Source: a virus
IMG/VR virus record: IMGVR_UViG_3300025121_000011
Location: 261,474-325,473 of that record
Direction: 5' to 3' (one strand)
Length of the DNA: 64,000 bases
Made by a program: the position numbers and the translations under genes
Shown here: piece after piece, positions 3,305 through 56,723 of the stretch
How the letters are laid out: the number at the start of each line of letters is the position of its first letter
Numbering within the stretch: the first letter of the stretch is position 1
Notes under the pieces: generated by a model
What the model saw: only the letters and a program-made list of their open reading frames with translations
Databases searched by the model: none
Told to the model about the DNA's origin: nothing

Positions 3305-3793
3305 ATGCGCCCTATCAAGCTTTCTCGAATCGTCATTCGCAGTGCCACCGTCGTTCGCTCTTGGCTTGAACGATGGAACGATTCCGCCCGTTCCATCTGG
3401 GAAGCTCAGGTTCCTGAGGGCCTTCCTCCGCTGGTTGTTTGCGAGGTTACCGTTCCGGGGGCATCGAAGGATGATGCGGAGAACCCCAATAAGGGGAATG
3501 TGGTAATGCTGGTCCCGACGGAAGAAGTGGACGACATGATGGAGGAGTTGCTTTTGCAGGCCAACGAGGGTCGACCGGCCACGGCGGCGGAGGTTGTCCG
3601 GAAGACGGCCACTTGGATCGATATTGGAACCGAAGACGCACCGAATCTGATTTTTTCGTTCAAGGTTTCTGAGGCTCCTGGCAGTCGAACAATCAAGGTT
3701 GCCGAGAGTGATCTTCCCCTGTTCCTTACCGGTCTCAATCTGAGGTTCAAGTCGTTGATTGTCCAGTGGAATGACGCCCATCCGGACAAGTAG
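3305..3793 (+). CDS. hypothetical protein
   Basis: 162-aa ORF after module 3217-3269; terminator hairpin 3815-3843; overlapping minus ORFs look like GC-rich shadow frames. Confidence 0.55.
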   Translation: MRPIKLSRIVIRSATVVRSWLERWNDSARSIWEAQVPEGLPPLVVCEVTVPGASKDDAENPNKGNVVMLVPTEEVDDMMEELLLQANEGRPATAAEVVRKTATWIDIGTEDAPNLIFSFKVSEAPGSRTIKVAESDLPLFLTGLNLRFKSLIVQWNDAHPDK

Positions 3794-3814
3794 AGAAAGA
3801 AAGAAAGAAAGGAG

Positions 3815-3843
3815 GGAAGGGGCGCATGCGCCCCTTCCCTTTA
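3815..3843 (+). terminator. rho-independent terminator
   Basis: GGAAGGGGCGCATGCGCCCCTTCC plus CTTT. Confidence 0.55.
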
Positions 3844-3898
3844 AACCTGTAGAATGAAGGGCGGATATATCCGTCCTTTTCGTGTATCTTTATTTTAG

Positions 3899-13845: not shown

Positions 13846-14082
13846 ATGCAAGTACAAGTAGCTCTACCCAAAACAGAGGAAGAGATTCTCGCCTATCTTC
13901 AGGGATTGCAACCTGGAGAGAGAGTGAGAGAAACTGGTAATTCTATGACAAATCAAGAAGGCGATGTCTCCATCAATGGACGTGGAAGCGTCTGTGTACT
14001 TTGGGATCCATTTGAAGATGGGAACCGGATGGGGACATCTATAACTTATGGCACACGAAGAGTGTCTGATCTAGAGGAATAG
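13846..14082 (+). CDS. hypothetical protein (internal ATG of track ORF 13801)
   Basis: ATG 13846 directly after the stop of the previous gene. Confidence 0.4.
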   Translation: MQVQVALPKTEEEILAYLQGLQPGERVRETGNSMTNQEGDVSINGRGSVCVLWDPFEDGNRMGTSITYGTRRVSDLEE

Positions 14083-14119
14083 TATGTGATCGCAATAAAT
14101 TAGAGTTAAAATGTTCGCA

Positions 14120-14178
14120 GGCGGCAAAAACTTAACTGCATCTCTAAAAAAATATTCTACATAGTAATATAGGGCTGT
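14120..14178 (+). promoter_or_regulatory. conserved promoter-like module heading a 940-nt ORF-free transcript
   Basis: GGCGGCAAAAACTTAACTGCATCTCTAAAAAAATATTCTACATAGTAATATAGGG. Confidence 0.5.
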
Positions 14179-15118
14179 GAGAGGAGCTAACTTGAAGGGC
14201 TAAAGAGTTTGTGGTGATGATAGTGTTAGTTGAGTTAACTTCTTTCACAGGACCTGGAGACTTCTCGGAAATATTTAAGATGGTATCATAACCGACTGGC
14301 AGGGAGCCGCACGGCAACAAAGGGCGTTCACCTTAGGGTGGGGGTCTGCCAAAATGATCAAGCCAAGCCTTGCAGGTAGGAGTGACCGGCGAAACTCCCG
14401 TAACCTGAGTAGGAGAATGGCAAGACGTGAGGGACATGCAGTCGACCCTTAGGGATACGATAATCCCCATTTTTTAACATCGTTACAAATAAGTGTTTAT
14501 TGAGTTTCACCAGTATCTCGGATAAAGGCGATGTTAAAGTTAAAACTGGTACTTGTTCTTAGCGGATCCCCGGCTCCGCGTTTGCCCAGAGGAAAGCCGA
14601 GAGACGTATAGTTTCTAACGGGTAGGCAGCATCGCAAGAGTGCCTGATAAAAAGAGGTTATCGGTGGTTGGCTTAGAGGCAGCCATCCTTAATGAGTGAG
14701 ACGATTGCCCCAAGGCGCAAAATGTCGGTAAGTGGTAACAGCTATGCCGATGATGTACCGGGGATAAACAGGGAAAGTGAAAGGCACCCCGTAACTGGTA
14801 AGGCCAATCTTCTCTTCAGCGTAATAGCACGCCGATATAATCTCTTTTAGGTAGGTCCACATGGAATAGCCAAGCGCTATGGGATCGAATATTATCGCAT
14901 TTGGGAATGGTACTCTCCCGCTGGTTGTACCACCTTCTTAAGCGTCAGACATTTACAATGCATAATGCCGGTTAATTTTGCCGGTTAAAGTTGTGAATGT
15001 AGAAAACACTTGTATATATAAGAACACAAGCAGTGACGTAAGTCTGTGATGATTCTATGCAGACACTCTATCATAAATTATAAAAGATGCGCAGCTTTAA
15101 AGCTGCGCATCTTCATTT
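14179..15118 (+). ncRNA. candidate ~940-nt non-coding RNA (promoter module to terminator, no ORF of 60 aa or more on either strand)
   Basis: module 14120-14178 immediately upstream; strong terminator at the end; GC-rich with many stem-forming segments. Confidence 0.45.
15083..15118 (+). terminator. rho-independent terminator ending the 14179-15118 ORF-free transcript
   Basis: AGATGCGCAGCTTTAAAGCTGCGCATCT plus TCATTT. Confidence 0.6.
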
Positions 15119-15123
15119 ATGTG

Positions 15124-15160
15124 TTGGCACAGGAAATGCATTATGCAAAAATCATGCCAG
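15124..15160. promoter_or_regulatory. nested-palindrome element (core variant TGCATTATGCAA)
   Basis: TTGGCACAGGAAATGCATTATGCAAAAATCATGCCAG. Confidence 0.45.
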
Positions 15161-15187
15161 TTAATTATTGTGCAAAAATCAACGTCT

Positions 15188-15248
15188 CCGGCGGCAAAAA
15201 CTTAACTTCTCTTCTAAAAAAATATTCTATAGAGTAACATAGGGCTGT
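15188..15248 (+). promoter_or_regulatory. conserved promoter-like module
   Basis: GGCGGCAAAAACTTAACTTCTCTTCTAAAAAAATATTCTATAGAGTAACATAGGG. Confidence 0.5.
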
Positions 15249-15260
15249 AGGAGAAACCAA

Positions 15261-15506
15261 ATGCCTTCCATCGATTATTCGGTATATATGAGGACCAGGT
15301 TACTGGACAAGGTAACCATGGCACAGCTGATAAAGGTTTGTAAAGATCGACAAGATCTGACCGTTACTCAGGAAGGTGACGATATCTTTCGTGTCTATCT
15401 TGATGTTCCAGGAAATCTGAACGCTGTTAGGATTTTGGAAGCGATTCATCGCGCAGATCGTTGGTGGGATGTAGCTTATGATCTTCGTTTCATGAAAAGC
15501 CTATAA
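15261..15506 (+). CDS. hypothetical protein
   Basis: after module 15188-15248; SD GGAGAAA. Confidence 0.45.
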   Translation: MPSIDYSVYMRTRLLDKVTMAQLIKVCKDRQDLTVTQEGDDIFRVYLDVPGNLNAVRILEAIHRADRWWDVAYDLRFMKSL

Positions 15507-33769: not shown

Positions 33770-34130
33770 GTTTTACCTATTCCAACTGAATTGCGAGAGC
33801 GAAAAAGAGTGGATTGATTTTTATTATGGTTTATCAGTCCTCCTTCATATTTAGTTATATAATTGCTTATACGGTTGTTTTAGATGTTTTGTCTATATTT
33901 AAATAGCAATATACAAAAGATATACGTCTAAGAAAAGTTTGAATTAAGTAAAAATATTTAGATAGCGATAAAATTCAGTATCTGTTGAGTTTGTTAGAGA
34001 AATTTATACACAAATTGATGAAGTTAATATCATTGGGTATTATTCTTCTTATGATGTTATTCATGTTGATGTTAACCGATGAACAGAAGAAATCGGTGAT
34101 ATATAATATGGATGCAATTGGAGGTTGGAA

Positions 34131-34631
34131 ATGATCTCATCAAGAGATTTGATTCTTTTTATTAATCCTCCAAAATATTTATCCGTATTGATTGCTTATA
34201 CAGTTGCCGCAGATGTTCTGCCTATATTTGAAAAGCATTTTCCGAAGGATTTGAGACCGAGAAAAGCTGTTGAAGCGTCTAAGATGTATTTGGATGGATA
34301 TGCGGTTGATGCTGCTGCTTATGTTGATGCTCCTTCTGCTCATTATGCTCCTTCTGCTCATTATGCTGCTGTTGCTGTTAATGCTGCTGATGCTTATGCT
34401 GCTGCTAATGCTGCTGCTAATGCTGTTTATTTTACGGCCAAAGATTCTTCCGAAGAACACATCTTTAACCTAATTTTATCTCTGCTTCCTCAGATGATCG
34501 ATTATGCTGTTGAAAATCAAGTTAAGTTATTCACCGGGTCTGGAGACTTCTCAGAAATATTTGAGATGTTAACCGATGAACAGAAGAAGCTGGTGATATA
34601 CAATATGGATGTAATTGGGAATTGGAAATGA
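34131..34631 (+). CDS. tandem-array protein 1: conserved N/C domains with hypervariable Ala/Tyr/Asn-rich core
   Basis: ATG 34131 (SD GGAGG); ends about 90% identical at DNA level to copies 2 and 3; core built of GCT-rich degenerate repeats. Confidence 0.6.
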   Translation: MISSRDLILFINPPKYLSVLIAYTVAADVLPIFEKHFPKDLRPRKAVEASKMYLDGYAVDAAAYVDAPSAHYAPSAHYAAVAVNAADAYAAANAAANAVYFTAKDSSEEHIFNLILSLLPQMIDYAVENQVKLFTGSGDFSEIFEMLTDEQKKLVIYNMDVIGNWK

Positions 34632-35185
34632 TTTCATCAAAAGATTTGGTTTTATTCATTAATCCTCCTAAATATTTATCCGTATTGATTGCTTATACAG
34701 TTGCCGCAGATGTTCTGCCTATATTTGAAAAGCATTTTCCGAAGGATTTGAGACCGAGAAAAGCTGTTGAAGCGTCTAAGATGTATTTGGATGGATATGC
34801 GGTTGATTCTGCTACCGCTGTTAATGCTGCTAATGCTGCTGCTAATGCTGCTTATGCTGCTGTTAATACTGCTGCTAATGCTGCTGCTAATGCTGCTGCT
34901 TATGCTGCTGCTTATGCTGCTGCTTATGCTGTTTATTATGTTGATGCTACTGATGTTGCTGCTAATGCTGCTTATGCTGCTTGTTATGCAGCCAAAGCCT
35001 CTTCCGAAGAACACATCTTTAATCTTATTCTATCTCTGCTTCCTCAGATGATCAATTATGCTGTTGAAAATCAAATCAAGTTGTTCACCGGACCTGGAGA
35101 TTTCTCAGAGATATTTGAGATGTTAACCGATGAACAGAAGAAGCTGGTGATATACAATATGGATGTAATTGGGAATTGGAAATGA
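34628..35185 (+). CDS. tandem-array protein 2 (hypervariable core)
   Basis: ATGA start/stop overlap with copy 1; core differs in length and sequence. Confidence 0.6.
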   Translation: MISSKDLVLFINPPKYLSVLIAYTVAADVLPIFEKHFPKDLRPRKAVEASKMYLDGYAVDSATAVNAANAAANAAYAAVNTAANAAANAAAYAAAYAAAYAVYYVDATDVAANAAYAACYAAKASSEEHIFNLILSLLPQMINYAVENQIKLFTGPGDFSEIFEMLTDEQKKLVIYNMDVIGNWK

Positions 35186-35691
35186 TTTCATCAAAAGATT
35201 TGGTTTTATTCATTAATCCTCCTAAATATTTATCTGTATTGATTGCTTATACAGTTGCCGCAGATGTTCTGCCTATATTTGAAGAGAAGTATCCGAAGGA
35301 TTTAAGACCGAGAAAAGCTGTTGAAGTTGCTAAGATGTATTTGGAAGGATATGCTGCTGATGCTTATGATGCTGCTATTTATTATGTTACTGATGCTGCT
35401 TATGCTATTGATGCCACTGTTTATGCTGCTAATGCTGCTTATTATGCTGCTTATGCTGCTTATGCTGTTACTTATAATTCTGATGCTGCCTATGCCGCTT
35501 ATTATGCAGCTAAAGCTTCTTCCGAAGAACACATCTTCAACCTGATTTTATCTCTGCTTCCTCAGATGATCAATTATGCTGTTGAAAATCAAATTAAGTT
35601 ATTCACAGGACCCGGAGATTTCTCAGGAATATTTGAGATGTTAACCGATGAACAGAAGAAGCTGGTGATATTCAATATGGATGTAATTTAA
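35182..35691 (+). CDS. tandem-array protein 3 (hypervariable core)
   Basis: ATGA overlap with copy 2; same conserved ends. Confidence 0.6.
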   Translation: MISSKDLVLFINPPKYLSVLIAYTVAADVLPIFEEKYPKDLRPRKAVEVAKMYLEGYAADAYDAAIYYVTDAAYAIDATVYAANAAYYAAYAAYAVTYNSDAAYAAYYAAKASSEEHIFNLILSLLPQMINYAVENQIKLFTGPGDFSGIFEMLTDEQKKLVIFNMDVI

Positions 35692-35721: not shown

Positions 35722-36687
35722 ATGAAGCTTGAAGAAATTGGTTTTTATAGTTTGCACGATGAGCGAGCCAAAAATACTTCGTCCTCTTCTCCTATGCAAC
35801 GATGCGAAGTTTTAATTACGGAGGATTGCAATTTTAGTTGTCCTTATTGCAAGATGAAGAAGAATAGTTCTTATCTTTCTTTTGAAGATGCAAAAACCCT
35901 TATTGATTATTGGGCAGATGATGGATTAGTTAATATTCGATTCTCCGGAGGAGAGCCGACTATGAATCCGTATCTTTATCAGATGGTAGAATATGCTAAG
36001 AGTCGCGAGATTAAACGGATAGCTATTTCTACCAATGGCTCCATGGTAACCGAGGTTTATCACGATCTGGTTCAAGCGGGAGTAAATGACTTCTCTATTT
36101 CACTTGATGCTTGTTGTGCATCTGATGGAGATATTATGGCAGGTGGTGTTGAGGGCTCTTTTAATAGGGTGATTGAAAATATCAAATATTTGTCAGCAAG
36201 AACATATGTTACGGTAGGAGTTGTTATTACTCATGAGAATGTTTCTAATGTGGCGAATATTGTTCGTTTTGCTCATGAACTTGGAGTTGCGGATATTCGC
36301 TTGATTTCTGCTGCACAATATAATGTTCTTTTAAAAGGAGTAGAGGATATCGATCCACAGATACTTGAGGCTCACCCGATTCTTAAGTATCGAGTTAATA
36401 ATATTTTAGCCGGCCATAATGTGCGCGGTATGAAAGATTGTGATTCTCATACTTGTTATTTAATTCAGGACGATTCTGTGGTAGTTAATGGGAAGCATTA
36501 TCCTTGTGTTATTCATATGAGGGAAAGTGGTAAACCAATTGGAAAGATTGGACCAAATATGCGACAGGAAAGAATTGCTTGGATGAAAAATCATGATCCT
36601 CATGATGACCCGATATGCAGATCGAATTGCTTGGATATTTGTATTCTATACTCTAATAAGGTAAGATCATTTCACAAGGACATTTAA
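35722..36687 (+). CDS. radical SAM enzyme with C-terminal Cys-rich SPASM/twitch-like domain (MoaA/PqqE/anSME-like)
   Basis: CNFSCPYC (CxxxCxxC) motif, GGEPTMNP and ISTNGS radical-SAM motifs, C-terminal cluster of about 7 Cys. Confidence 0.7.
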   Translation: MKLEEIGFYSLHDERAKNTSSSSPMQRCEVLITEDCNFSCPYCKMKKNSSYLSFEDAKTLIDYWADDGLVNIRFSGGEPTMNPYLYQMVEYAKSREIKRIAISTNGSMVTEVYHDLVQAGVNDFSISLDACCASDGDIMAGGVEGSFNRVIENIKYLSARTYVTVGVVITHENVSNVANIVRFAHELGVADIRLISAAQYNVLLKGVEDIDPQILEAHPILKYRVNNILAGHNVRGMKDCDSHTCYLIQDDSVVVNGKHYPCVIHMRESGKPIGKIGPNMRQERIAWMKNHDPHDDPICRSNCLDICILYSNKVRSFHKDI

Positions 36688-36724: not shown

Positions 36725-37813
36725 ATGCGATTTATTCATTTTCCAAAAATTGGTCAATTCAAGGATGCTATTCATTCGATTCGTCAACGAGGCGCTTATG
36801 TAGGTAGAGATGTTAATGGCGATATTATTTATGATAGTTCTATTTTGATGCCAAAAATTACATTCATTGGTTCTGTTAAAATGCATGGTACTAATTCTGC
36901 TGTATCTTTTCATCGTATGGAAGGAGTGAGGCAGGCTCAATCTAGGAATAAGATTTTATCTATAGAATCAGATAACAATGGATTTTGTAGATTTACAGAG
37001 TCTATTCCCGAAGATGTTTGGGATTTTCTTTTTAATTCTCTATTATCTCCACTAATTACTGAGCCATATCTTTTTGGACGAGTAACGGTTTTTGGAGAAT
37101 GGATTGGTCCCGGTGTTCAGGGTGGTGAAATTGGTATTAAATATCTTCCGAATAAAATCTTTGTAGTGTTCGGAGTATATGTTGGGGAGCGTGATGAATT
37201 AGAAGATAAAACTCCCACCGGATACTTTGTTCCTCTTTGTGATATTCCATCTTTCAATGATGAATCTTATCATCTGAATGATAATAGAATTTATTTAATT
37301 ACTGATTTAGCTCCAACTTTCAAAATAGAAGTCGATTGTAATTATCCAGAAATTTCTAGGAATAAGTTGGTCGAATTAACTATGCAAGTTGAAGCTAAGT
37401 GCCCAGTCGCCAATTACTTTGGAATTGAAGGAACGGGAGAGGGCATCGTATGGTGCTCAATTACGGAAGGGTGGATGGGTCCAGATTTTTGGTTTAAGAC
37501 CAAGGGAGAAAAGCATTCCGCTTCAAAGATAAAAAAGATAGCCGAAGTAGATGTAACAAAGGTAGAGGGAGTAATTGCGTTTTTAGAAGAGACTCTAACT
37601 GAAGTTAGATTGAATCAAGCTTTGGAATACTTAAAAGAAAAAGAGATGCCTATCGATCGAAGTAGCACAGGCGAGTTTGTTCGGTGGATGATCAATGACG
37701 TTACTACTGAAGAGGCTATAATGATGGAAGCCTCAGGACTTACAGTAAAAGAAGTTGGTCCCAAATTAGGCACAGCCGCCAGGCAGTGGTTTTTTAATCA
37801 ACTTAATAAGTAG
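36725..37813 (+). CDS. ATP-dependent RNA ligase, Rnl2-like
   Basis: motif I KMHGTN (T4 Rnl2 KIHGTN), motif IV GEGIVW, motif V FWFKTKG. Confidence 0.7.
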   Translation: MRFIHFPKIGQFKDAIHSIRQRGAYVGRDVNGDIIYDSSILMPKITFIGSVKMHGTNSAVSFHRMEGVRQAQSRNKILSIESDNNGFCRFTESIPEDVWDFLFNSLLSPLITEPYLFGRVTVFGEWIGPGVQGGEIGIKYLPNKIFVVFGVYVGERDELEDKTPTGYFVPLCDIPSFNDESYHLNDNRIYLITDLAPTFKIEVDCNYPEISRNKLVELTMQVEAKCPVANYFGIEGTGEGIVWCSITEGWMGPDFWFKTKGEKHSASKIKKIAEVDVTKVEGVIAFLEETLTEVRLNQALEYLKEKEMPIDRSSTGEFVRWMINDVTTEEAIMMEASGLTVKEVGPKLGTAARQWFFNQLNK

Positions 37814-37816
37814 GAG

Positions 37817-38062
37817 ATGTCCATGTCTTTTACATTTGTTAATGTACTTTTCATTCTCTTTATTTATATGATAGTTTTTGGTTATCCACTTCGTGGTATA
37901 ATTTTATTATTTTTATGGATAATAGATTGTTTTCCAGAAACAAAACATGATCGTTTGTTAATAATTTCTTCATGTATACTTCCAGTATTTGGAGAGTGTG
38001 TGGTTCTTTGGTTCTTAATTAAGCAAATGATTAAGTGGATAAAGGAGGGAAAAGGTGATTAA
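37817..38062 (+). CDS. small membrane protein
   Basis: two hydrophobic helices; SD TAGGAG. Confidence 0.4.
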   Translation: MSMSFTFVNVLFILFIYMIVFGYPLRGIILLFLWIIDCFPETKHDRLLIISSCILPVFGECVVLWFLIKQMIKWIKEGKGD

Positions 38063-38381
38063 AATTAACGGTAAAACATTTTTTACAACTAATATTTCAA
38101 ATGTTTCTATTCGTAATAATGAAATATATATCGACGGAAAGTTGGTAGGCGATAGTAAAGATGCAGAACAGGGTATTCTTACTGTCAAGATTGAGGGTAA
38201 TTTGGTTAGCTTAATTTGTGATGCAACAGTAGAAGTAACAGGCAATGTAAATGGTAGCATTAGCGCTGGTAACTCTGTTTACTGTGGTAATGTTAATGGA
38301 AATGTTAATTGTGGAAATTCTGCTCATTGTAATAATATTGAAGGCAATGTAACTGCTGGAAATTCGGTTCATAAATTATAA
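38055..38381 (+). CDS. protein with Gly-Asn repeat motifs (GNVNGS / GNSVxCGN repeats)
   Basis: GTG start with SD AAAGGAGGG; terminator 38499-38522 downstream. Confidence 0.45.
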   Translation: MIKINGKTFFTTNISNVSIRNNEIYIDGKLVGDSKDAEQGILTVKIEGNLVSLICDATVEVTGNVNGSISAGNSVYCGNVNGNVNCGNSAHCNNIEGNVTAGNSVHKL

Positions 38382-38498
38382 AGAATTGATTCTTGTAATA
38401 AAATTTATGTAGTCGAAAAGATTATTATCTTAGAAAAAAAAGTATCAAGATAATGTATCGATATAAAGCCACGGGATTGCTTTGATTTAGCGTAAGGA

Positions 38499-38522
38499 TG
38501 GCGGACTCAGGTCCGCTATTTG
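38499..38522 (+). terminator. rho-independent terminator
   Basis: GGCGGACTCAGGTCCGCT plus ATTTGG. Confidence 0.45.
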
Positions 38523-38547
38523 GCGCATTGGTTGTCATGGATTAATA

Positions 38548-38578
38548 GAGGTGATAATTGTATAATAAAAGTTTTATT
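38548..38578 (+). promoter_or_regulatory. sigma70-like promoter with extended -10 (TGTATAAT)
   Basis: TTGTATAAT about 100 nt upstream of the Hen1-like gene. Confidence 0.35.
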
Positions 38579-38676
38579 GATCTTAGTAAAGATAAGTCAA
38601 TGAATTGTAGCTAAGGTTTTATTATTTTGATTCGAAAATCGATTGTTCAATACTCAGGATAGAAAGGGAAATAATA

Positions 38677-40038
38677 ATGATTATACGATTTACATCGACC
38701 AATCCAAACGCACTTGATATTCTTAAAAAGAATCCAGAAAGTTTTTCAGGTATTCAATTGAGAAGTCATAAAAATGGTGTGGCTATAGGTAGGATTATTT
38801 CCGCAAAGATTCCTATTGAATATCATATGATCTTTCAAGATACTAAATATAGTTACTCTCAGGATTCCTCTAATCAGATTGATTTTCAAAGTTATTGCAA
38901 TCCTCGTGCAGCACTTGGTTTAATTGGAGAGTTACTCCGGCACGTATTAGTATCAGATCAAGATTGGCGGGATACAGATATTCCATGGCTTAACTCTACA
39001 ATTGGAGAAGTTGATACAAGAGACTTTAACCACACTATTATAGTAGATAATTTATATGCAGATGGTTTTAACTTAGATGGAGGGCTGGTTTTAGAAAAGT
39101 ATTTTAAGGAGATTTCTCTAAAAAGAAATGGTCAGAATCAGTTTGAGCTAAAGATAGATGTCTGTCGAGATACAATACATTATACCATTAATTTATTGGC
39201 TTTTGTATGTATGTATTTGGCGGCAACTAATAAACAGCCTTGGTATCTTAACCGAGATATAGCATCAAAATACATTAGAGTTTTAGAAAATATTGGTGAC
39301 GTGCCATATTTTATTTTATATCTTTTTGCCCGTTCCTGTCTTCCATCGGAAGAATTATTTAATGAATTCGCTCCTCGATTGGAGAATATTTTTTACAGCT
39401 ATGATGATCGAGCAAATGATCTAACTATGGTATATGGAAATACTCAATCAATGAGATTGCGAAGTATTTCTGATTTGCTTTTAACTAATGATAAAATTTT
39501 TTCTAACATTATAGAAATTGGTTGTGGCGATGGAGATTATCCTCGCCGATTAGCAAAGAAGTTGAATAATGGATTAAGTTGGTGGTCATATGATATTGAA
39601 GATCATAGTTATCTTAATCGTAAAATTCCAGAAATGATGGGAAAATTAGCAACATTTAAATTTACTCAAGAGTGGGATCAAATTCCTTTATTGGATAACC
39701 CTATAGTATTGTTAGTAGAAGTAATTGAGCATATGTCGGTTGAAGAAGCGATAGAATTAATCTGTCGAATTTTAGATAAGCACTCTCCGACACAATTAAT
39801 TATTACTACTCCAAATAGGACATTTAATAATTATTATCGGTTTGATCCCGAAGATGATGGATTTAGACACAGCGATCACAATTTTGAAATGACTCAGGAG
39901 CAATTTAAAGAATATATTCTTAGTATCATTAAATTGCTCCCATATGATGCATCCTTTTTCGGAATTGGTGATCGAATTGATGCAGATTATACTACTCAAG
40001 GAGTGGTATTAACTCGTAAAGATCCTGGGTCAAGCTAA
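38677..40038 (+). CDS. hen1: Hen1-like RNA 3'-terminal 2'-O-methyltransferase (bacterial Hen1 architecture)
   Basis: 453 aa; C-terminal SAM motif I IEIGCGDG, metal-binding EVIEH (ExxEH) and H 46-49 aa downstream as in Hen1 methyltransferases; N-terminal ~270 aa non-MTase domain; extended -10 promoter upstream. Confidence 0.6.
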   Translation: MIIRFTSTNPNALDILKKNPESFSGIQLRSHKNGVAIGRIISAKIPIEYHMIFQDTKYSYSQDSSNQIDFQSYCNPRAALGLIGELLRHVLVSDQDWRDTDIPWLNSTIGEVDTRDFNHTIIVDNLYADGFNLDGGLVLEKYFKEISLKRNGQNQFELKIDVCRDTIHYTINLLAFVCMYLAATNKQPWYLNRDIASKYIRVLENIGDVPYFILYLFARSCLPSEELFNEFAPRLENIFYSYDDRANDLTMVYGNTQSMRLRSISDLLLTNDKIFSNIIEIGCGDGDYPRRLAKKLNNGLSWWSYDIEDHSYLNRKIPEMMGKLATFKFTQEWDQIPLLDNPIVLLVEVIEHMSVEEAIELICRILDKHSPTQLIITTPNRTFNNYYRFDPEDDGFRHSDHNFEMTQEQFKEYILSIIKLLPYDASFFGIGDRIDADYTTQGVVLTRKDPGSS

Positions 40039-40496
40039 TGTGGGGCATTAGTCGTAAAGATTCTAGCCCATGTAATGTAGTACCACCACTTTTTATTAAA
40101 TATTTAGATTATTTAGTGAGAGATGGACAATTATATTATATGAAGAGAAATTCTATAAGTCCATCTGTAATGATTCCAGATTCAGCTTACAGTTGGGGCT
40201 GGGATAATGCCGGGAATTATGGATTTGTTTGGCGCGGACCTAATGCCTATGAAGGGAATTTGCCATCCGATTTAGCTGGAATATTTCCACTGTGGGATAT
40301 AATTTGGTCTTTTGCTTATCGTTATGAAAGACATCTTGTAGCAGAACAGAATTGGAATGCAACTCAAAGAGAATACTTTTATATCCTTCCTGATAGATTT
40401 TTGGAATTAGAAGAAATAAGAGAGTTATGCGAACAAAATCTTTGGGTTGAGGCCGCTTCTTTATATGAGGTTAAGAAAAAAATATGGTGCGATTAA
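40038..40496 (+). CDS. hypothetical protein
   Basis: coupled to the Hen1-like gene (stop/start overlap). Confidence 0.5.
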   Translation: MWGISRKDSSPCNVVPPLFIKYLDYLVRDGQLYYMKRNSISPSVMIPDSAYSWGWDNAGNYGFVWRGPNAYEGNLPSDLAGIFPLWDIIWSFAYRYERHLVAEQNWNATQREYFYILPDRFLELEEIRELCEQNLWVEAASLYEVKKKIWCD

Positions 40497-40684
40497 CTTT
40501 GAAATTTCCAAATATTACTGCTGATATTTTAGAGGAAAAGTTAAAGGATGCTGTTGAAAAATTTACATTATCCGCAGAGTATTCTGATGGCGAAGTAATC
40601 ATTATTGGATCAAAAGAGGCAATTCATATAATTCAAAAGGCATATAAAATACAACAGATGCTTTCATCTATGACAGTCAATTAG
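40484..40684 (+). CDS. hypothetical small protein
   Basis: 66-aa ORF in the operon. Confidence 0.35.
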   Translation: MVRLTLKFPNITADILEEKLKDAVEKFTLSAEYSDGEVIIIGSKEAIHIIQKAYKIQQMLSSMTVN

Positions 40685-40694
40685 TGAGGCTTGC

Positions 40695-41105
40695 ATGTCT
40701 GATTATGAGTTTGAATCAAATAGTTTGTTAAATGCTCTTCAACACATTGATTGGGATAAGTTAGTTCTTAATAAAAATTCAGGTATGGCACGTTTGCTTA
40801 CTGGAAGAGATGATTCTATTCCACTTAATAAAATACAAGTGAAGATTGTGTATTCAGATTATAATCCGGTTGGATGGGCTTGGGTTTTTCCATATATTGA
40901 TTATGATGGCCGTCGGCGCCTCGGATTTATGATTTTTATTCAAAGAGAATATCGTCGCAAAGGCTTGGGATCTAAATTGTTAGATTGGGGTCGAAACATT
41001 GCACGTCAAAAGCACATTAAATTTATTGTATATCCATGGGATAAAAAAGGACATTTGTTTTTTGAATCAGCCGGAATAACAAGTAGAAACAAAGGGGACT
41101 GGTAA
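40695..41105 (+). CDS. GNAT-family N-acetyltransferase
   Basis: QREYRRKGLGSKLLDW matches the GNAT motif A (Q/RxxGxG/A). Confidence 0.55.
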   Translation: MSDYEFESNSLLNALQHIDWDKLVLNKNSGMARLLTGRDDSIPLNKIQVKIVYSDYNPVGWAWVFPYIDYDGRRRLGFMIFIQREYRRKGLGSKLLDWGRNIARQKHIKFIVYPWDKKGHLFFESAGITSRNKGDW

Positions 41106-42331
41106 TGGGTAAACGATATTTAACTGAAAAAGAAGAGGGGCGTATTCGTCGAGCTATTAAGCAGAAGATTCAGTTTTTTTCGCCTACTATCTCTCCAGCT
41201 CCAAAAGATATGACTCGTAGAGAGATTGAAAGCATTCGTTCTGCAATCATGATTTATCATGAAGCTGGTATGAAAGGTGTTGTTATTCAACCAAAGTATA
41301 TGGGTTCTTATTGTGATATTTATTTGCATCGAGATCTTGATAAGACTAAATTTTATTCTCGTCGTGGTTATGAAGTTAGACTTGATTTTGAAATCTTGAT
41401 TCAAGCAGTTAAATATTTGCATAATAAGTTTTTTTCCGATGAGTGTGAAATTAATTTTAAAGATGCAGAATTAATCATTATTCAATCCGAGCTTATGCCT
41501 TGGCATGCTTTAGGTGGAGGATTAATTGAGCGAGATTTTGGAGGGTATGAAATCTCTCACCGTATTCACCAAAGGTATTTTGCATCTACTGGCATTAAAA
41601 AAGATGTAGAGTCTTTAACAGAAGATCCGATTTATCGTCAATTTTTAGAAGATAAGTGTGTTATGGATCGTAAGACACTTCTTAAAAAGTATCCAATGCA
41701 TATTGCTTCTCAATATGAAGCTTTAGAAGCTCTTGCTTTTCCAGATGTAGAACAGTATCTTCAAGATATTGAAGTTTATTCCGAACAGCTTTCTCTATAT
41801 GGTTCGGCAGGAGAATTGCATTTTAAACCTTTTAATATTTTAAAGATTGTATATTGTGATGGGCGGGAGGTAATTCCTGGTGATCATAAATTTGGATTTT
41901 TATCAGTGAGATTAAATCAAGAAGAAAATCCAATGTTTGAAATCGATTTCTCAACACCAGAATTGGATAAACAAATCGATTTAGCTTATAAATTCTTTAA
42001 TACATTAACTGATGATAAAAAGATGGAGGGAGTAATTATCAAGCCGATTGGGATATGGAATCCTGATGTTGCACCAATGTTTAAGGTTCGAAATAATAAT
42101 TACTTACAAATGATTTATGGTGTCAATTTTCAGCGTGAGTATGATTATTATCTTAATAAACGAAGCATTGGTGGAAAAGTAAGGGCTTCTAAAAACCAAT
42201 GGAATATTGCACAAGAAATTATTAAAATTCCTATGACGGAAATTAGTGATGACAATGTTAATTACACCAAATTAATTCGTGGTAGAATTTATGAAGAAGA
42301 TTATGAGAGGTTGTTAGATTCTAGATTATAA
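41105..42331 (+). CDS. nucleotidyltransferase-superfamily polynucleotide ligase-like protein (second RNA/DNA ligase)
   Basis: QPKYMGS (KxxG motif-I-like), EGVIIKP (motif IV), MFKVRN (motif V). Confidence 0.5.
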   Translation: MGKRYLTEKEEGRIRRAIKQKIQFFSPTISPAPKDMTRREIESIRSAIMIYHEAGMKGVVIQPKYMGSYCDIYLHRDLDKTKFYSRRGYEVRLDFEILIQAVKYLHNKFFSDECEINFKDAELIIIQSELMPWHALGGGLIERDFGGYEISHRIHQRYFASTGIKKDVESLTEDPIYRQFLEDKCVMDRKTLLKKYPMHIASQYEALEALAFPDVEQYLQDIEVYSEQLSLYGSAGELHFKPFNILKIVYCDGREVIPGDHKFGFLSVRLNQEENPMFEIDFSTPELDKQIDLAYKFFNTLTDDKKMEGVIIKPIGIWNPDVAPMFKVRNNNYLQMIYGVNFQREYDYYLNKRSIGGKVRASKNQWNIAQEIIKIPMTEISDDNVNYTKLIRGRIYEEDYERLLDSRL

Positions 42332-47881: not shown

Positions 47882-49057
47882 ATGACTACATCACTTGAAG
47901 ATCTTACCACTGCATTACCAACTTTATATGCTTTAGACAGCAGCGGACGTATCAAGGTCTGGTCCGTTAGCATATGCATACATTTGGATCAATCCGCTAC
48001 ATATACAGTAATTCACGGGCTTTTAGATGGAAAGAAACAGAGAAGCCCGCGCAAAATTACCAGCGGGAAAAATATTGGGAAAGCTAATGAAACTTCCCCA
48101 TATGCTCAAGCGTTATCAGAAGCTCAAAGCAAATGGAAAAAACAGATTGACAAGGGATATGTAGAAGATGTGAATAACATTCCTGTCTGCACAGAGGTAG
48201 AATATTTTCTTCCGATGCTTGCTCAAAAATATACTGAGCGTAGTAAGCACATGAAATATCCTGCGTATGTGCAGCCAAAGTTCGATGGTTATCGAGCACT
48301 TAGTCGAAGAATCGGTAAGCAAGTTGTTCTATGGTCTAGAACCGGGAAGCCATTTTTTACCCTGGATATTATCGTTTCTGAATTAGAATCGATAATAAGT
48401 TCAAATGAATGTTTAGATGGGGAAGTTTATAGGCATGACTGGAGAAGTCCATCTAATGAGCCCGACTTTCAAAGAGTTTCTTCGGCAATTAAAAAGAGAA
48501 AGGCAGATACAGATTTGTTAGAATATCATGTTTATGATCGTCCAATTCCAGAGAAGCCTGAAGCCTCATTCTATGAGCGGTTTTATAAACCAGCGTTCAT
48601 TGACGGCACTTTAGTTGGCAGTGACCATGTTAAAATTGTCCCCACTGCATTGGTGGCATCAGAAGAAGAAATGATGCTTCTTTTTAATCAATGGGTCAGT
48701 GAAGACCTTCCGTATGAAGGTGCTATCGTTAGAAATGCTTCTGGTGTATATGGATTTGACACCAGAAGCAATGATCTTCTGAAGGTAAAGGATTTTCAAG
48801 AAGAAGAGTATGAAATCATTGGAGCTAAAGAAGGTACCGGAAAAGACGAGGGTACTGCAATCTTCTTATGTAAGATGAAGGATGGTACAGAATTTGATAG
48901 TCGTCCGGTAGGCTCTTATGAGCAGAGAGCAGAATATTTAACTAACATTAGTAAATATATAGGCAGATATCTTCGGGTAAGATTTAATGGTCTGTCTAAT
49001 CTTGGGGTTCCACGCTTTAATCGTGGCGTAGGTATCAGAGAAGAATGGGATATGTAA
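47882..49057 (+). CDS. ATP-dependent DNA ligase
   Basis: motif I KFDGYRAL (KxDGxR), motif IV EGAIVR, motif V DLLKVK. Confidence 0.75.
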   Translation: MTTSLEDLTTALPTLYALDSSGRIKVWSVSICIHLDQSATYTVIHGLLDGKKQRSPRKITSGKNIGKANETSPYAQALSEAQSKWKKQIDKGYVEDVNNIPVCTEVEYFLPMLAQKYTERSKHMKYPAYVQPKFDGYRALSRRIGKQVVLWSRTGKPFFTLDIIVSELESIISSNECLDGEVYRHDWRSPSNEPDFQRVSSAIKKRKADTDLLEYHVYDRPIPEKPEASFYERFYKPAFIDGTLVGSDHVKIVPTALVASEEEMMLLFNQWVSEDLPYEGAIVRNASGVYGFDTRSNDLLKVKDFQEEEYEIIGAKEGTGKDEGTAIFLCKMKDGTEFDSRPVGSYEQRAEYLTNISKYIGRYLRVRFNGLSNLGVPRFNRGVGIREEWDM

Positions 49058-53984: not shown

Positions 53985-54037
53985 AAATCCTCCGTATAAT
54001 TTATGCTTATAAATTAGTAGATTCTTTAGTAAATTTT

Positions 54038-54114
54038 AGGGCCATAACTCAATTGGTTAGAGTGTCGCTCTCATAAAGCGAATGTTCTGAGTTCGAGTCT
54101 CAGTGGCCCTACCA
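54038..54114 (+). tRNA. tRNA with CAT anticodon (initiator/elongator Met or Ile2 lysidine-type), CCA encoded
   Basis: acceptor AGGGCCA/TGGCCCT, D-arm ACTCAATTGGTTAGAGT, anticodon loop CTCATAA, T-arm CTGAG-TTCGAGT-CTCAG, ACCA. Confidence 0.7.
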
Positions 54115-54261
54115 TTTTAATCTTAAATAATAAAGCCTTGTTGAGTCGCTAAAATCTGGGTTGGCTTCCCAGCTTCCCAGCTCCTCGCTCTGGAGTAGGT
54201 ACGAGTCAAAGAGAATGCCTGCCCGGGTTTCCCCCGGCTGGGAGCCGGATTAAGTTCTCAT

Positions 54262-54350
54262 AGTAGTGTGATGGTCCTATTCACTACATTCCTGGAACAA
54301 ATAGTTTAATTGGGAGAACATTGACGAAAGGTGTGGGTTCGAGTCCTGCT
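54262..54350 (+). ncRNA. tRNA-like element lacking a canonical anticodon arm (Y-RNA-like / tRNA-mimic candidate), preceded by hairpin GTAGTG...CACTAC
   Basis: D-arm-like GTTTAATTGGGAGAAC and T-arm GTGGG-TTCGAGT-CCTGC only 13 nt apart; similar in architecture to the 54605 element. Confidence 0.35.
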
Positions 54351-54389
54351 TTGATTTTTTATATTAATCTTAAAATCGCGAGGAGTAAT

Positions 54390-54602
54390 ATGACTGTATT
54401 TCTTGTTGTAAAAGATTACAATCGTGAGTGTCCAAAGGACATAATTATGTCAGCCTTTTATAATAAAGAGGATGCCAAGACTTTTATGAAAAATACTTTT
54501 GAAGAGATATGTAATTGTCCTGATCGGCAGACTGATGAAGATGAATTGGGATGTTTCAGATGTTGCTTGTGGATTGGTATTGATTCGATAGAGGTAAAAT
54601 AA
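54390..54602 (+). CDS. hypothetical small Cys-containing protein
   Basis: ATG 54390 with SD GAGGAG; track start 54321 lies inside the tRNA-like element. Confidence 0.35.
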   Translation: MTVFLVVKDYNRECPKDIIMSAFYNKEDAKTFMKNTFEEICNCPDRQTDEDELGCFRCCLWIGIDSIEVK

Positions 54603-54604
54603 CA

Positions 54605-54690
54605 TAGTGATCATCCTATTCATTACATATTAATGGGCCAAATAGTTCAAGTGGGAGAATATCGTCGCGAGAAGATGTAGGTTCAAATCC
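54605..54690 (+). ncRNA. tRNA-like element lacking a canonical anticodon arm (second copy)
   Basis: D-arm-like GTTCAAGTGGGAGAAT and T-arm GTAGG-TTCAAAT-CCTAC 15 nt apart; similar upstream hairpin. Confidence 0.35.
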
Positions 54691-54814
54691 TACTTTGAGC
54701 CCCCAATTTCATATTCATAGTTTGGGTACATTCAGCATAAATTTTTTTTACCATATAAAAACAAATCGTACCCAGTGATTTAATCCTGGCTTTTGCCATT
54801 TAATGAGGTGTTTA

Positions 54815-55030
54815 ATGTGGAAGAATATTTTGGTTATGCTAATGCTTATGGGTTGCCCTACTGTTGAATCAGTTTCTGATGATGCAGCAGTAGTGGATGA
54901 TGCAGTAGTAGTTGAGACTCCGGTAGTTCAGTCTGATGCAGCAGTTGATGCGACTGTTACTACTCCGGTAGTTGATGAAAATGATGTTACTGCTGATGTT
55001 GTAGAAAATGTTCCAGTTGCAACTGAGTAA
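54815..55030 (+). CDS. small secreted/lipoprotein-like acidic repeat protein
   Basis: signal peptide ending GCP; Val/Asp/Ala-rich repeats. Confidence 0.35.
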   Translation: MWKNILVMLMLMGCPTVESVSDDAAVVDDAVVVETPVVQSDAAVDATVTTPVVDENDVTADVVENVPVATE

Positions 55031-55196
55031 ATAGGGAATAGGCATCACGGTCGCCTTTAAGTACGCCGTCATAGGTAAGTTTAGTTTTGGGTTGATAACT
55101 ATATTTAAGCAAACCTTAAACAGTTCATAATTTTAAGAAGAGATTTCTTATTATTCACAAATGAATGAGCCAATGATTGTGTCAGTTGGCATCGGT

Positions 55197-55279
55197 GCGG
55201 AGTATACAAGTGGTCAAAGTAGAGGCGCTCATAACGCTTTGCTATAGCTTCATGGGTTCGAATCCCATTTCCGCTCCCA
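55197..55279 (+). tRNA. tRNA-like with CAT anticodon (second CAT tRNA; acceptor stem imperfect)
   Basis: anticodon arm AGGCG-CTCATAA-CGCTT, T-arm ATGGG-TTCGAAT-CCCAT, 3' TTTCCGC t CCA; acceptor pairs 6 of 7. Confidence 0.5.
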
Positions 55280-55289
55280 ATGCTTGCAC

Positions 55290-55673
55290 GAATATAGGTT
55301 CCGGTCGAAACACCTACAAAGTTTCGTAAAATCCTGTGAGTTTAGCCATCTGTAACCAACCAGGTCGGGTCAGGATTAAGCAACCGCAAGCGGGTCATGC
55401 TAATATATTCTCATAACCTTTAGAAGTAGGATCGGAAAGAAATCCGGTAGGCAAGGTCGACTTACCCTGGTAAACTTCTTAAAGTGCTGCACTGGAATAA
55501 AAAGCATACAGTTGGGTGATTGTCCTAGTCCCAACATCTTTAAGCCTTAACAGTTGGAGTTCTGTTTTTCATGAGTAAGCAGTGTCGGAGATTTAATTTA
55601 TTAAATCAATGACTAGGCTGAAAGTCGCTTTGCTGAATTTGATGATGCTTGTGTCAAAAGTATCTGATCTGAA
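55290..55673 (+). ncRNA. structured RNA candidate with group-I-intron-like conserved elements
   Basis: no ORF; AAATCCGGTAGGCAAGGTC (55439-55457) resembles the group I Q element AAUCCGCAGCCAAGUCC; TCAATGACTAGGCTGAAAGTC resembles the R/P7 region. Confidence 0.3.
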
Positions 55674-55775
55674 AGCTTCAGACTTGATTGAATGCGAAAG
55701 TCATGGTTCTTAATTGACACTCCCCATGACAGTTAGTAAATCCAAGAGACGGTTAGGTTCGAATCCTAGGAGGCT
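55674..55775 (+). ncRNA. expanded tRNA-like element (acceptor AAGCTTC/GAGGCTT, T-arm TTAGG-TTCGAAT-CCTAG, internal 7-bp hairpin)
   Basis: 7-bp acceptor complementarity and canonical T-loop but about 102 nt long with no D-arm or anticodon arm. Confidence 0.3.
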
Positions 55776-55782
55776 TATTATT

Positions 55783-56130
55783 ATGAAAAAGCAAAAGGGT
55801 TGGATTATTATTGGTTTAAAACGAAACGGAGATTATGTTGGTTACATTGAAAATTCTTTTTCAATGGGACGCAGTTTAGAACGGGTTTTAGTTTTTCGTC
55901 CAAATCCTCTTTCTGAAAAAGAACATCCAAATAAGAGTGCTGTAGATAATGCTCGTTCACATTTAGCAAAACTTCAGGCTCTTGATGACCACACTGAGTG
56001 GTGGTTGTATCGAGTTGGTTCTTGTACTTGTCCCGTCAAAATTGATTGGGGTTCTTTATACGAAGAATATCGAGGAAGTACAAGAGTAAGTAATTTTAAC
56101 TGGAGAAATCTTAAATTCAGTCGGAAATAG
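55783..56130 (+). CDS. hypothetical protein
   Basis: SD TAGGAGG then ATG 55783. Confidence 0.4.
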   Translation: MKKQKGWIIIGLKRNGDYVGYIENSFSMGRSLERVLVFRPNPLSEKEHPNKSAVDNARSHLAKLQALDDHTEWWLYRVGSCTCPVKIDWGSLYEEYRGSTRVSNFNWRNLKFSRK

Positions 56131-56162
56131 AAGTATATTATTTGTTACCTGAGGGGATTTAA

Positions 56163-56393
56163 ATGTCTGTGCCGAATGTAATTCAAAAGGCTTTTGATCT
56201 TGATGAGAGGATTATTGCCGTGGCTTGGGATAAGATTGAGCCAGTGCTGATTTTATCTAAACCATGGCTCGAAAGTGCCGAAGAGGAGATGGTTCAAGAA
56301 GAGTTTTTAAGGCAAAGTGAAACATATCTATTATTTGATGAACTATGGCGATTTTTTGAAGATTGTGAATCAACTAGATATGATAGAGAATAG
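56163..56393 (+). CDS. hypothetical small acidic protein
   Basis: SD GAGGGGA. Confidence 0.35.
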   Translation: MSVPNVIQKAFDLDERIIAVAWDKIEPVLILSKPWLESAEEEMVQEEFLRQSETYLLFDELWRFFEDCESTRYDRE

Positions 56394-56405
56394 TTTTTGT
56401 TTTGA

Positions 56406-56560
56406 TGCCATGTAGCAAAGTAGGTAAATGCAAGTGTGGACTAAGCCAATATGGATGGTCTTGTAATCGAGAGAACAAGTTCCGGGATCATGGTGAAACC
56501 CATTGTTATTATTTAGCCCGACGAATAATGACGCGCTGGTTCGAGTCCAGCCATGGCAAC
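56406..56560 (+). ncRNA. tRNA-like element with a ~100-nt expanded central region (perfect 7-bp acceptor TGCCATG/CATGGCA)
   Basis: D-arm GCAAAGTAGGTAAATGC, T-arm GCTGG-TTCGAGT-CCAGC, acceptor 7/7, no canonical anticodon arm. Confidence 0.4.
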
Positions 56561-56568
56561 TATTTTTT

Positions 56569-56681: not shown

Positions 56682-56723
56682 CTATTTGAGAAGACATAAC
56701 ACTTAACAAAAGGAGATAATTAA

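Follow-up and report, generated by a model that had tools for sequence, protein, structure and literature searches.

An ORF-free unit with one conserved structured RNA

We analyzed a 64,000-nucleotide (nt) stretch of the viral record IMGVR_UViG_3300025121_000011 (here called the window; all coordinates are positions in it). The source is a huge (∼305- to 352-kb) groundwater phage that has been assembled repeatedly (JGI 3300025087 Ga0208957_1000006, Rifle C687J266xx samples, and ENA runs). A first-pass annotation, made from the sequence alone, had singled out a 940-nt unit at 14179-15118, running from a promoter module to a terminator, as a candidate large structured noncoding RNA. As that annotation stated, the unit lacks an open reading frame (ORF) of at least 60 amino acids (aa) on either strand. 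Its longest ORFs, both on the minus strand, encode 58 aa (14144-14320) and 57 aa (14689-14862), and each of the six frames contains 10 to 23 stop codons across the unit. The segment 14083-15045 (963 nt) is the longest without an ORF of this size in the whole 64 kb, the second longest being 23636-24445 (810 nt). The balanced composition described earlier was also recovered: GC content is 0.48 to 0.51 in the unit versus 0.37 to 0.44 in its flanks, and is raised over 14200-14900. Six-frame searches of the unit against Pfam (E ≤ 1) gave no match. We rejected a protein-coding gene or pseudogene on account of the stops in every frame, the lack of a Pfam match, and a sole protein homology limited to a 19-residue fragment (14232-14288). 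A mobile element was likewise dropped, as terminal inverted or direct repeats flanking the unit were not found.

Only one part of the unit, a 197-nt segment at 14651-14847, has homologs or support for a structure, and it almost certainly belongs to a conserved structured RNA family that resembles the GTPase-associated center (GAC) of 23S rRNA. Its closest relatives by blastn were at loci L120 (73% identity over 174 nt, E = 1e-21), L157 (E = 1e-22), and L103 (68% over 192 nt). For each conserved half a profile hidden Markov model was built from which the window sequence was left out; these two models, used in place of a covariance model, each matched the 64 kb once, at 14663-14700 (E = 1.2e-11) and at 14818-14834 (E = 0.0038). 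An unconstrained fold of the whole 940 nt recovered the family helices with pair probabilities of 0.65 to 0.97 (0.71 to 0.92 in the closing helix and 0.85 to 0.97 in the arm). This core returned more than 130 high-scoring segment pairs from the same collections (INPHARED phages, plasmids, 119 related viral loci, and 3 metagenome loci) in which 14179-14650 (∼470 nt) and 14848-15118 (with the ∼235-nt trailer) had no blastn homolog. The large noncoding RNA first proposed is thus present in reduced form: a structured RNA does lie on the plus strand between the promoter and the hairpin, with a length of ∼197 nt rather than 940 nt, and the leader and trailer outside it are probably spacer.

Thermodynamic stability was a poor guide to this segment. 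The many complementary segments noted in the first-pass annotation showed no excess over chance: the z-score of the minimum free energy (MFE) for the whole unit was −2.0 for the plus and −2.5 for the minus strand. In 150-nt windows, z-scores ran from about −2 to +1.3 across the body of the unit, fell below −2 only at its 5′ end and at the terminator, and were no better than those of adjoining coding DNA. With values so unremarkable, z-scores cannot locate the RNA within the unit. The features assigned to the unit are collected in Table 1.

Table 1. Features assigned in and immediately upstream of the unit
Feature	Coordinates	Strand	Description and basis
Promoter module	14120..14178	+	GGCGGCAAAAACTTAAC - N9 - TCTAAAAAAATATTCTA - N5 - AGTAATATAGGGCTGT; repeated ahead of many early phage genes
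5′ leader, gene debris	14179..14291	+	Frame translations, tblastn/tblastx
Leader	14292..14650	+	No homolog; local MFE z −1.1 to +0.9; includes GAGGAAAGCCGAGAG at 14589-14603
Conserved structured RNA (197 nt)	14651..14847	+	GAC-like (23S helices 42-44) with inserted arm; blastn, profiles, Rfam, E. coli 23S
Closing helix (H42-like)	14651..14664 with 14832..14847	+	AAAGAGGUU/AAUCUCUUU plus AUCGG/CCGAU; 15 pairs, 2-nt bulge
H43-like hairpin	14665..14689	+	E. coli 1057-1081; stem GGUUGGC/GCCAUCC; loop UUAGAGGCA at 14673-14681
Junction	14690..14697	+	UAAUGAGU; E. coli 1083-1090; alignment A1
Inserted arm (117 nt)	14698..14814	+	Base helix 14698-14701/14811-14814 (GAGA/UCUC), continued 14703-14706/14806-14809
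Linker and H44-like hairpin	14815..14831	+	UUCA, GC-GUAAUA-GC (14819-14828; E. coli 1091-1100), ACG; alignment A1, column table
Trailer	14848..15083	+	No homolog; local hairpin 14949-14959/14990-15000
Terminator hairpin	15084..15118	.	Perfect palindrome 15084-15113 and short T-tract

Likeness to the GTPase-associated center of 23S rRNA

The GAC is the ribosomal site of uL11, the stalk, EF-G/EF-Tu, RelA-dependent signaling, thiopeptide antibiotics, and one or more known toxins. A permissive blastn search of cultured phages (E ≤ 10) returned weak matches from unrelated phages (Pseudomonas pf16, Aeromonas 4_4572, Xanthomonas XacN1, Serratia BF, and Erwinia jumbo phages), all of them on 14663-14704 and, for two phages, also on 14773-14835. 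These matches fell in unannotated gaps of 250 to 390 nt, with tRNA genes alongside in two of the four inspected. In the E. coli genome the shared string matched 23S rRNA only, with 26 of 29 positions identical at helix 43 (H43), and positions 1099-1121 of the Rfam model LSU_rRNA_bacteria (RF02541) aligned to 14666-14688. This alignment covers those model positions only and reaches 11.7 bits against a gathering score of 50, and we therefore rejected a full bacterial large-subunit (LSU) rRNA gene. The same string has been printed as the L11-binding GTPase-region RNA (PMC1802607).

Measured against the 58-nt L11/thiostrepton domain of 23S rRNA (E. coli 1051-1108), the family is near-identical at G1059-A1088 and at G1091-C1100. 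It keeps the H43 and H44 hairpins, the A1067 and A1095 loops, the G1087-C1102 pair, and G1071/C1072, which form triples, together with G1091-C1100/C1092-G1099. In the 1999 crystal structures of Conn and Wimberly, G1071 and C1072 reportedly form base triples with the H44 stem. The conserved family positions include both the contacts of the C-terminal domain of L11 (1058-1060, 1062-1065, 1075-1083, and 1088) and the thiostrepton pocket at A1067 and A1095, as listed in PMC1802607. The family nevertheless differs from the ribosomal domain in several respects. It is a free-standing phage gene of 150 to 450 nt outside rRNA operons; its closing helix has a sequence of its own, which covaries freely; position 1101 is A, not U; and an arm of 29 to 339 nt plus a UUUG linker stands between 1090 and 1091. 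Comparison with a Firmicutes-type 23S sequence (AAAGAGUG-CGUAAUAGCUCAC) places the entry of the arm between U1090 and G1091, so that the three-way junction becomes a four-way junction. The inserted arms showed no similarity to other rRNA regions, among them the sarcin-ricin loop and H42.

The window copy retains every nucleotide and pair that is conserved in the family. An exact match to GGCTTAGARGCAGCMATC (family pattern GU.GGC-UUAGARGCA-GCCAUC) lies at 14667-14687 and is the single such site in the 64 kb; within it, A14675 corresponds to A1067. The junction is one U shorter than in most members, as it is in 15 of 81 aligned sequences (family form (U)UAAWGAGU), A14695 is the equivalent of A1088, and G14694 (G1087) pairs with C14830 (C1102). 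The arm carries an internal hairpin (14723-14729/14746-14752) and, at 14783-14805, a conserved hairpin module specific to its subtype, GGCACCCCGUAACUGGUAAGGCC. The linker reads UUCA versus the family consensus UUUG. Positions 14819-14833 read GCGUAAUAGCACGCC, where the family has GC-GUARYA-GC followed by ACAC or ACGC, and A14823 is the equivalent of A1095. The closing helix has 15 bp versus a family median of 9. Longer closing helices in copies not adjoining tRNAs, which would hint at release by RNase III, were not significant (p = 0.17).

Family members and covariation

To enumerate the family, IMG/VR was scanned with a 5′-block pattern (GGCTTAGARGCAGCMATC-N3-5-AAWGA), which retrieved at least 119 loci; of these, L057 and L122 alone are true 23S rRNA. 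An independent scan with the 3′ block gave at least 120 loci; among the matches listed, 87 were new, and 79 of these had a recognizable, variant 5′ block. Pooled, the two scans yielded at least 158 unique elements, to which the percentages on family context below refer. Members share one architecture: the 5′ strand of a closing helix, an H43-like hairpin, the junction UUAAAGAGU, an insert of 29 to 339 nt, the H44-like segment UUUG-GCGUARYAGC-ACAC, and a complementary 3′ strand. Short inserts occur in L119 (29 nt) and L031 (46 nt). Cultured carriers are phages pf16, UNO-G1W1, Milchi, Astolliot, 4_4572, XacN1, XbC2, GAP32, CBB, BF, and the Erwinia pEa_SNUABM group, and in none of them has the element been annotated.

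Sequences that proved to be ribosomal were removed. Paenibacillus phage Pd_22F (L245, record 83376-84612) carries genuine 23S sequence, and the short "phage" contigs H40-H47 and H67-H82 (Staphylococcus, Listeria, and enterics) are true 23S fragments. INPHARED "phage" records that contain genuine 23S sequence, whether as host DNA or as misassigned contigs, thus give false positives in searches for GAC elements. Across 185,579 species-representative genomes, a pattern designed to exclude rRNA found 19 sites, comprising ∼10 divergent true 23S genes and 9 family members. The nine genome copies lie mostly on contigs of metagenome-assembled genomes, four of them in or beside runs of tRNA genes. One member, at ∼3540-3860 of its locus (L143; Acidithiobacillus sp. 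M4-SHS-6, NZ_CP175559.1), lies within an 8-kb chromosomal array of 38 tRNAs, which indicates that tRNA arrays of cells or mobile elements carry the element as well.

Covariation with homologs, which the first-pass annotation had proposed as a check, spoke for the structure. In an alignment of 81 distinct sequences, whose inserts were cut down to 10 + 10 nt (alignment A1), 88.5% of cells were paired under the proposed structure, versus 65% in shuffled alignments and at most 53% when the structure was slid. The covariation score was 0.578, which none of 500 shuffles reached, versus 0.156. Compensatory changes were seen at all nine closing pairs, at all four arm-base pairs, and at the H43 pairs 1057-1081 and 1058-1080. 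The arm-base pairs are formed in 93% of cases across the 81 members, G1087-C1102 is paired in 80 of 81, and junction positions 1082/1086 covary (U-A 64, A-U 18, C-G 18). RNAalifold, applied to 13 full-length members of the window subtype, arrived independently at the closing helix, H43, and H44, and also found an arm hairpin, GGC-ACCCCGUAAnUGGUAAG-GCC (window 14783-14805), whose closing pairs covary.

Conservation was read separately where retrieval could not have imposed it. In A1, G1059 and U1060, both free of pattern bias, are 100% conserved, and G1091, G1093, U1094, A1098, and C1100 are invariant in 81 of 81 members despite the up to four mismatches permitted at retrieval. In the 3′-anchored set, G1063, C1072, and C1075 are conserved at 100%, G1071 at 99%, and A1067 at 84%, and H43 shows GGA..UCC and A1062/U1076 exchanges.

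The inserted arms fall into subtypes that carry conserved motifs of their own (for example, in L015, L014, L028, and L051; in L037, L054, and L110; and at window 14710-14760). One subtype, found in XacN1 and BF, ends in AAGACCCUUAGAGCAUUU. Many members share an arm motif, GCGAAAUG...hairpin...GAUGUG, which has the form GCGCAAAAUG..GAUGAUGU in the window; the GCGAAAUG-type motif may be a kink-turn-like or loop-E-like protein-binding motif.

Association with tRNA genes

A tRNA gene lies within 40 nt of 46% of the elements and within 500 nt of 61%, and elements often abut tRNAs at distances of 7 to 20 nt. All 726 tRNAs found within 3 kb of an element are on the same strand as it. The remaining 39% of the elements listed, the window copy included, have no tRNA within 500 nt. 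The tRNA nearest to the window copy is a tRNA-Leu gene at 16751, 1.9 kb downstream on the same strand, so that this copy lies outside the tRNA-array location typical of the family.

In the window, the tRNA cluster of the phage is further away, at 54000-57320. This cluster also holds tRNA-like matches that were found with Rfam only and were negative with ARAGORN (54295-54357, 54636-54701, 56568-56681 [114 nt], and 57231-57320 [90 nt]), as well as an ORF-free stretch of 641 nt at 55073-55713. Intron-containing tRNAs or Y-RNA-like partners are possible occupants of the cluster. Just downstream of it, 58709-60160 encodes a DUF2828/DUF7788 protein with the PHROGs label "RNA-binding protein."

Neighboring genes gave little further guidance. 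The proteins flanking the unit were found in the source phage only, and the 284-aa neighbor is an ORFan among 5.8 billion proteins. IMG/VR searches with two neighbor proteins and the promoter motif returned chance matches only (L001 and L011) and no close relatives. Because the flanking proteins are confined to the source phage and IMG/VR holds no close relative of it, synteny with relatives yielded no homologs. Elsewhere in the family, no protein neighbor recurs among ∼125 loci, the best cluster, HNH-like, being present in 10. A host component shared by many bacteria is therefore the likely partner of the RNA, and this would fit a copy of a universal ribosomal site.

A candidate mimic of the GTPase-associated center

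Given its sequence and predicted fold, we think that the RNA probably works in trans, imitating the GAC of the ribosome and competing with it for a ligand, and we hold this view with some reserve. According to this model, the unit would be transcribed from promoter to terminator as a noncoding RNA of which the ∼197-nt domain at 14651-14847 would be the only functional part. The family RNA would fold like the GAC and would compete with the ribosome for a factor that recognizes it. This factor may be uL11 of the host, perhaps together with uL10/bL12, or a ribotoxin or defense effector directed at the GAC. In most phages the RNA would be released from tRNA precursor transcripts, and in the window phage from an early transcript of its own. 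A copy of the GAC cannot replace the site in the ribosome, so it would act as a competitor and not as a spare part.

Several observations bear on the ligand. That the exposed A1067 and A1095-A1098 loops are kept, beyond the face bound by L11, suggests that the face recognized by factors or toxins matters. A precedent for a GAC-directed effector exists in the Tre23 toxin, which ADP-ribosylates bases 1095-1098 of H44 (PMC8661411), and phage tRNA arrays have been proposed to serve in counter-defense (PMC10264068). Genes for Hen1, for an RNA ligase and a Pnkp-type ligase, and for Imm5-like immunity paralogs are also present in the source phage. All of these observations are circumstantial evidence for a GAC-directed ligand. 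More tentatively, and as a possibility that we rate below the general model, phages and other mobile elements that have tRNA arrays may encode a dedicated GAC decoy. Such a decoy might capture uL11 or the stalk, by which translation would be reprogrammed or RelA-dependent stringent signaling blunted. It might instead soak up effectors of the A1067/A1095 face, as a sponge for Tre23-like ADP-ribosyltransferases or stalk-dependent nucleases.

A number of points weigh against a function as mimic or decoy, which we have deduced from sequence, structure, and context. The first search pattern prescribed positions 1062-1079 and 1084-1088, so that their invariance in A1 is partly imposed. Binding of L11 could be altered or blocked by the inserted arm, which lies beside the contact nucleotide A1088. 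A stoichiometric decoy does not easily neutralize a catalytic toxin. The window copy, at 1.9 kb from the nearest tRNA and with a decayed gene at the 5′ end of its unit, could be a displaced relic. Finally, the nine contigs of the source phage that were compared are 100% identical over the unit, and they therefore provide no within-lineage evidence of selection.

Alternative explanations

Three alternatives concern the unit in the window. The whole ∼940 nt could form one large structured noncoding RNA in which the GAC-like domain is one module and the leader and trailer supply further functional domains. That the unit has one promoter and one strong hairpin terminator would fit this, as would the raised GC content over 14200-14900 and an MFE model that pairs 14303-14349 with 14562-14577 at probabilities of 0.79 to 0.88. 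We consider it improbable, since neither 14179-14650 nor 14848-15118 has a homolog in the collections searched, local z-scores resemble those of coding DNA, the 5′ end is a gene fragment, and in other phages the element is complete in 150 to 450 nt between tRNAs. Scarcely worth entertaining is a divergent RNase P RNA or another cataloged large RNA (GOLLD, ROOL, transfer-messenger RNA [tmRNA], 6S, or a group I or II intron). The string GAGGAAAGCCGAGAG, in which the first-pass annotation saw a weak likeness to the P4 region of RNase P, does exist and resembles conserved region I (CR-I) of RNase P, and GOLLD and ROOL are phage RNAs found near tRNAs. Yet the string sits in the unconserved leader, no RNase P model matched even at E ≤ 10, and no Rfam 15 model except tRNA reached its gathering score in the window. 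The likeness to RNase P RNA amounts to an 8-mer resembling CR-I (GAGGAAAG) outside the conserved core, and reading of the sequence revealed no convincing 3′ partner strand of P4 for GGAAAGCCGAGAG. About four 8-mers are in common with M1 RNA, where a back-of-envelope estimate gives ∼5 by chance. The window copy might also be a nonfunctional relic, displaced from a tRNA array into decaying early-region DNA. The unit does open on gene remnants (a truncated gene, a dead start codon); between the copy and the closest tRNA lie 1.9 kb, the tRNA cluster of the phage being at 54 to 57 kb; and the flanks are unique. The retention of all conserved nucleotides, of the 15-bp closing helix, and of the arm helices argues that such a relic is unlikely, as does the intact promoter module upstream. 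Moreover, 39% of the at least 158 family members are likewise more than 500 nt from any tRNA, and phage genomes rarely keep ∼1 kb of junk.

Two further alternatives concern the family as a whole. Its members could be processing or architectural elements of tRNA operons, serving as punctuation for RNase cleavage or as precursor stabilizers, with the GAC likeness left over from a captured piece of rRNA. Strict co-orientation with tRNAs, frequent abutment at 7 to 20 nt, and the lack of a conserved protein partner are all consistent with such a role, which we regard as unlikely, though somewhat less so than the alternatives above. Punctuation alone would need neither near-invariant A1067 and A1095-A1098 in exposed loops nor the G1071/C1072 of the triples or the 1082/1086 junction pair, and 39% of the copies listed, including that in the window, lie outside tRNA arrays. 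A cis-regulatory, protein-binding leader of the downstream gene has its precedent in the leaders of ribosomal protein (r-protein) genes, for which rRNA mimicry is established (PMC7247131). In the window, however, a terminator and a new promoter precede the next gene, an 81-aa ORFan that starts at 15261; elsewhere the element is flanked by tRNAs and not by r-protein genes, and no gene family recurs in the ∼125 loci. A leader of this kind thus appears very improbable. Competition in trans with the ribosomal GAC remains the reading that we prefer.

Relation to known systems

Rfam 15 was scanned with the whole window at gathering scores and with 13900-15400 and 14630-14870 at E ≤ 10 with relaxed filters. 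This comparison, which the first-pass annotation had also proposed, identified only tRNAs at gathering score, and the relaxed scans added only terminator-driven noise and LSU rRNA H43, below threshold. We accordingly rejected GOLLD, ROOL, HEARO, OLE, tmRNA, 6S, and group I and II introns, none of which had an Rfam 15 match in the window or in four element-bearing phage loci. Rfam 15 contains no family of the present kind, the sole sub-threshold match being helix 43 of LSU rRNA.

GOLLD and ROOL are phage-borne, noncoding, and frequently near tRNA genes, and in these respects they are like the GAC-like family. The latter is smaller, differs in architecture, has a recognizable rRNA-derived core, and gave no Rfam match to either. 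Leaders of the L1, L10, L20, S15, and S4 operons imitate rRNA binding sites (PMC7247131) and are, like the family, nonribosomal RNAs that copy an rRNA site for protein binding. These leaders act in cis in cellular operons and share few nucleotides with rRNA, whereas the family is viral, contains a near-exact rRNA copy of ∼40 nt, and stands among tRNAs with no r-protein gene alongside. With the phage tRNAs that counter tRNA-targeting defenses (PMC10264068, PMC11464382), the family shares its niche, its orientation, and probably its precursor transcripts, and both are phage-encoded copies of host RNAs of translation. Unlike those tRNAs, the family is negative with ARAGORN and with the Rfam tRNA model.

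We found no description of a GAC-like phage RNA in the literature, although the IMG/VR structured-RNA catalog (PMC10690425) may contain it as an unnamed entry. That catalog holds 10,006 candidate structured RNAs and reported no overlap with rRNA predictions (PMC10690425). As far as we could determine, a free-standing viral copy of the GAC tied to tRNA arrays is new within rRNA mimicry, and if it is a decoy, it arguably represents a new class. It would then be the first known free-standing viral mimic of a functional site of rRNA and would extend to rRNA the counter-defense logic of the "spare tRNA." A class of phages equipped with a portable copy of a highly conserved ribosomal site would add a layer to the conflict over translation and would point to host factors or defense effectors, so far unrecognized, that read the GAC. 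The family would also provide a compact natural scaffold, in which the GAC fold tolerates an insertion of 29 to 339 nt at a defined point. The cultured carriers (pf16, XacN1, GAP32, CBB, BF, and Aeromonas 4_4572) make the family directly testable. For the window itself, an anonymous 1-kb gap becomes one defined RNA gene plus spacer.

Other features of the unit and of the window

The promoter module upstream of the unit is intact, as first described. Its element GGCGGCAAAAACTTAAC occurs 13 times in the window (≤2 mismatches) versus 0 expected, and the copy at 14120-14178 shares 88% identity with the one that follows it, at 15190-15248. Aligned with one another, the other copies lead into a Shine-Dalgarno (SD) sequence and a start codon. 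In the form GGCGGCAAAA..TTAAC..TAAAAA(T)ATATTCT..AGTAA, the module was found at 16 sites across 963-52350, upstream of many early genes. Two modules stand in tandem at 18359/18489 (18359-18520) with a GC-rich hairpin between them, and one copy (19326-19342) is on the minus strand.

At the start of the unit, an SD sequence and a TTG start at 14192-14203 are followed three codons later by a stop. A leader ORF of 24 to 26 codons (14211/14217-14291) comes next, and its part at 14232-14288 is a fragment of an Imm5-like hypervariable paralog family. The fragment of a hypervariable gene family reported at 14245-14283 was therefore real and slightly longer: 14232-14288 translates to ELTSFTGPGDFSEIFKMVS*, 19 residues that match the C-terminal part of the paralogs at 34125-35691 (tblastn/tblastx, E = 5e-6 to 4e-4). 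Those paralogs are three tandem genes of ∼170 to 190 aa with conserved ends and an Ala/Tyr/Asn-rich middle of variable length; one of them (34622-35185) has a match in Pfam (E = 8.5e-6, slightly above the cut-off) to Imm5_like, which denotes a putative immunity protein of polymorphic toxin systems. We dropped the idea that the fragment is the template of a diversity-generating retroelement, as it lies outside the hypervariable part and no reverse transcriptase was present among the subset of window proteins scanned with PHROGs or Pfam. The leader also contains a weak terminator-like hairpin with a T-run (14452-14475). Chance accounts for a 14-nt match between 14440-14453 and 23S position 1315 (E = 4.7).

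The strong terminator proposed at 15083-15118 is borne out in its hairpin, a perfect palindrome of 15 + 15 nt at 15084-15113, while its T-tract, CATTTATGTG, is weak. The hairpin reads identically on either strand, and nowhere else in the region is the local MFE signal strong (z −3 to −5.8 at the hairpin). The segment 15084-15118 probably closes the unit as a bidirectional terminator.

Elsewhere in the window, a set of RNA-repair genes occupies 36725-42331 and comprises an RNA ligase (36725-37813), a protein with a Hen1 N-terminal domain (38677-40038), and a Pnkp-type adenylyltransferase/ligase (41105-42331). Upstream of the set, 35722-36687 encodes a radical-SAM protein, and an ATP-dependent DNA ligase is encoded at 47882-49057. 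The repair genes suggest that the phage counters RNA-damaging toxins. Toward the end of the window, 62515-63762 encodes a 415-aa protein that fuses His_biosynth (HisA/HisF-like), PRA-CH, and PRA-PH domains, near a Ham1-family NTP pyrophosphatase at 60353-60988; both look like auxiliary genes of nucleotide or histidine metabolism.

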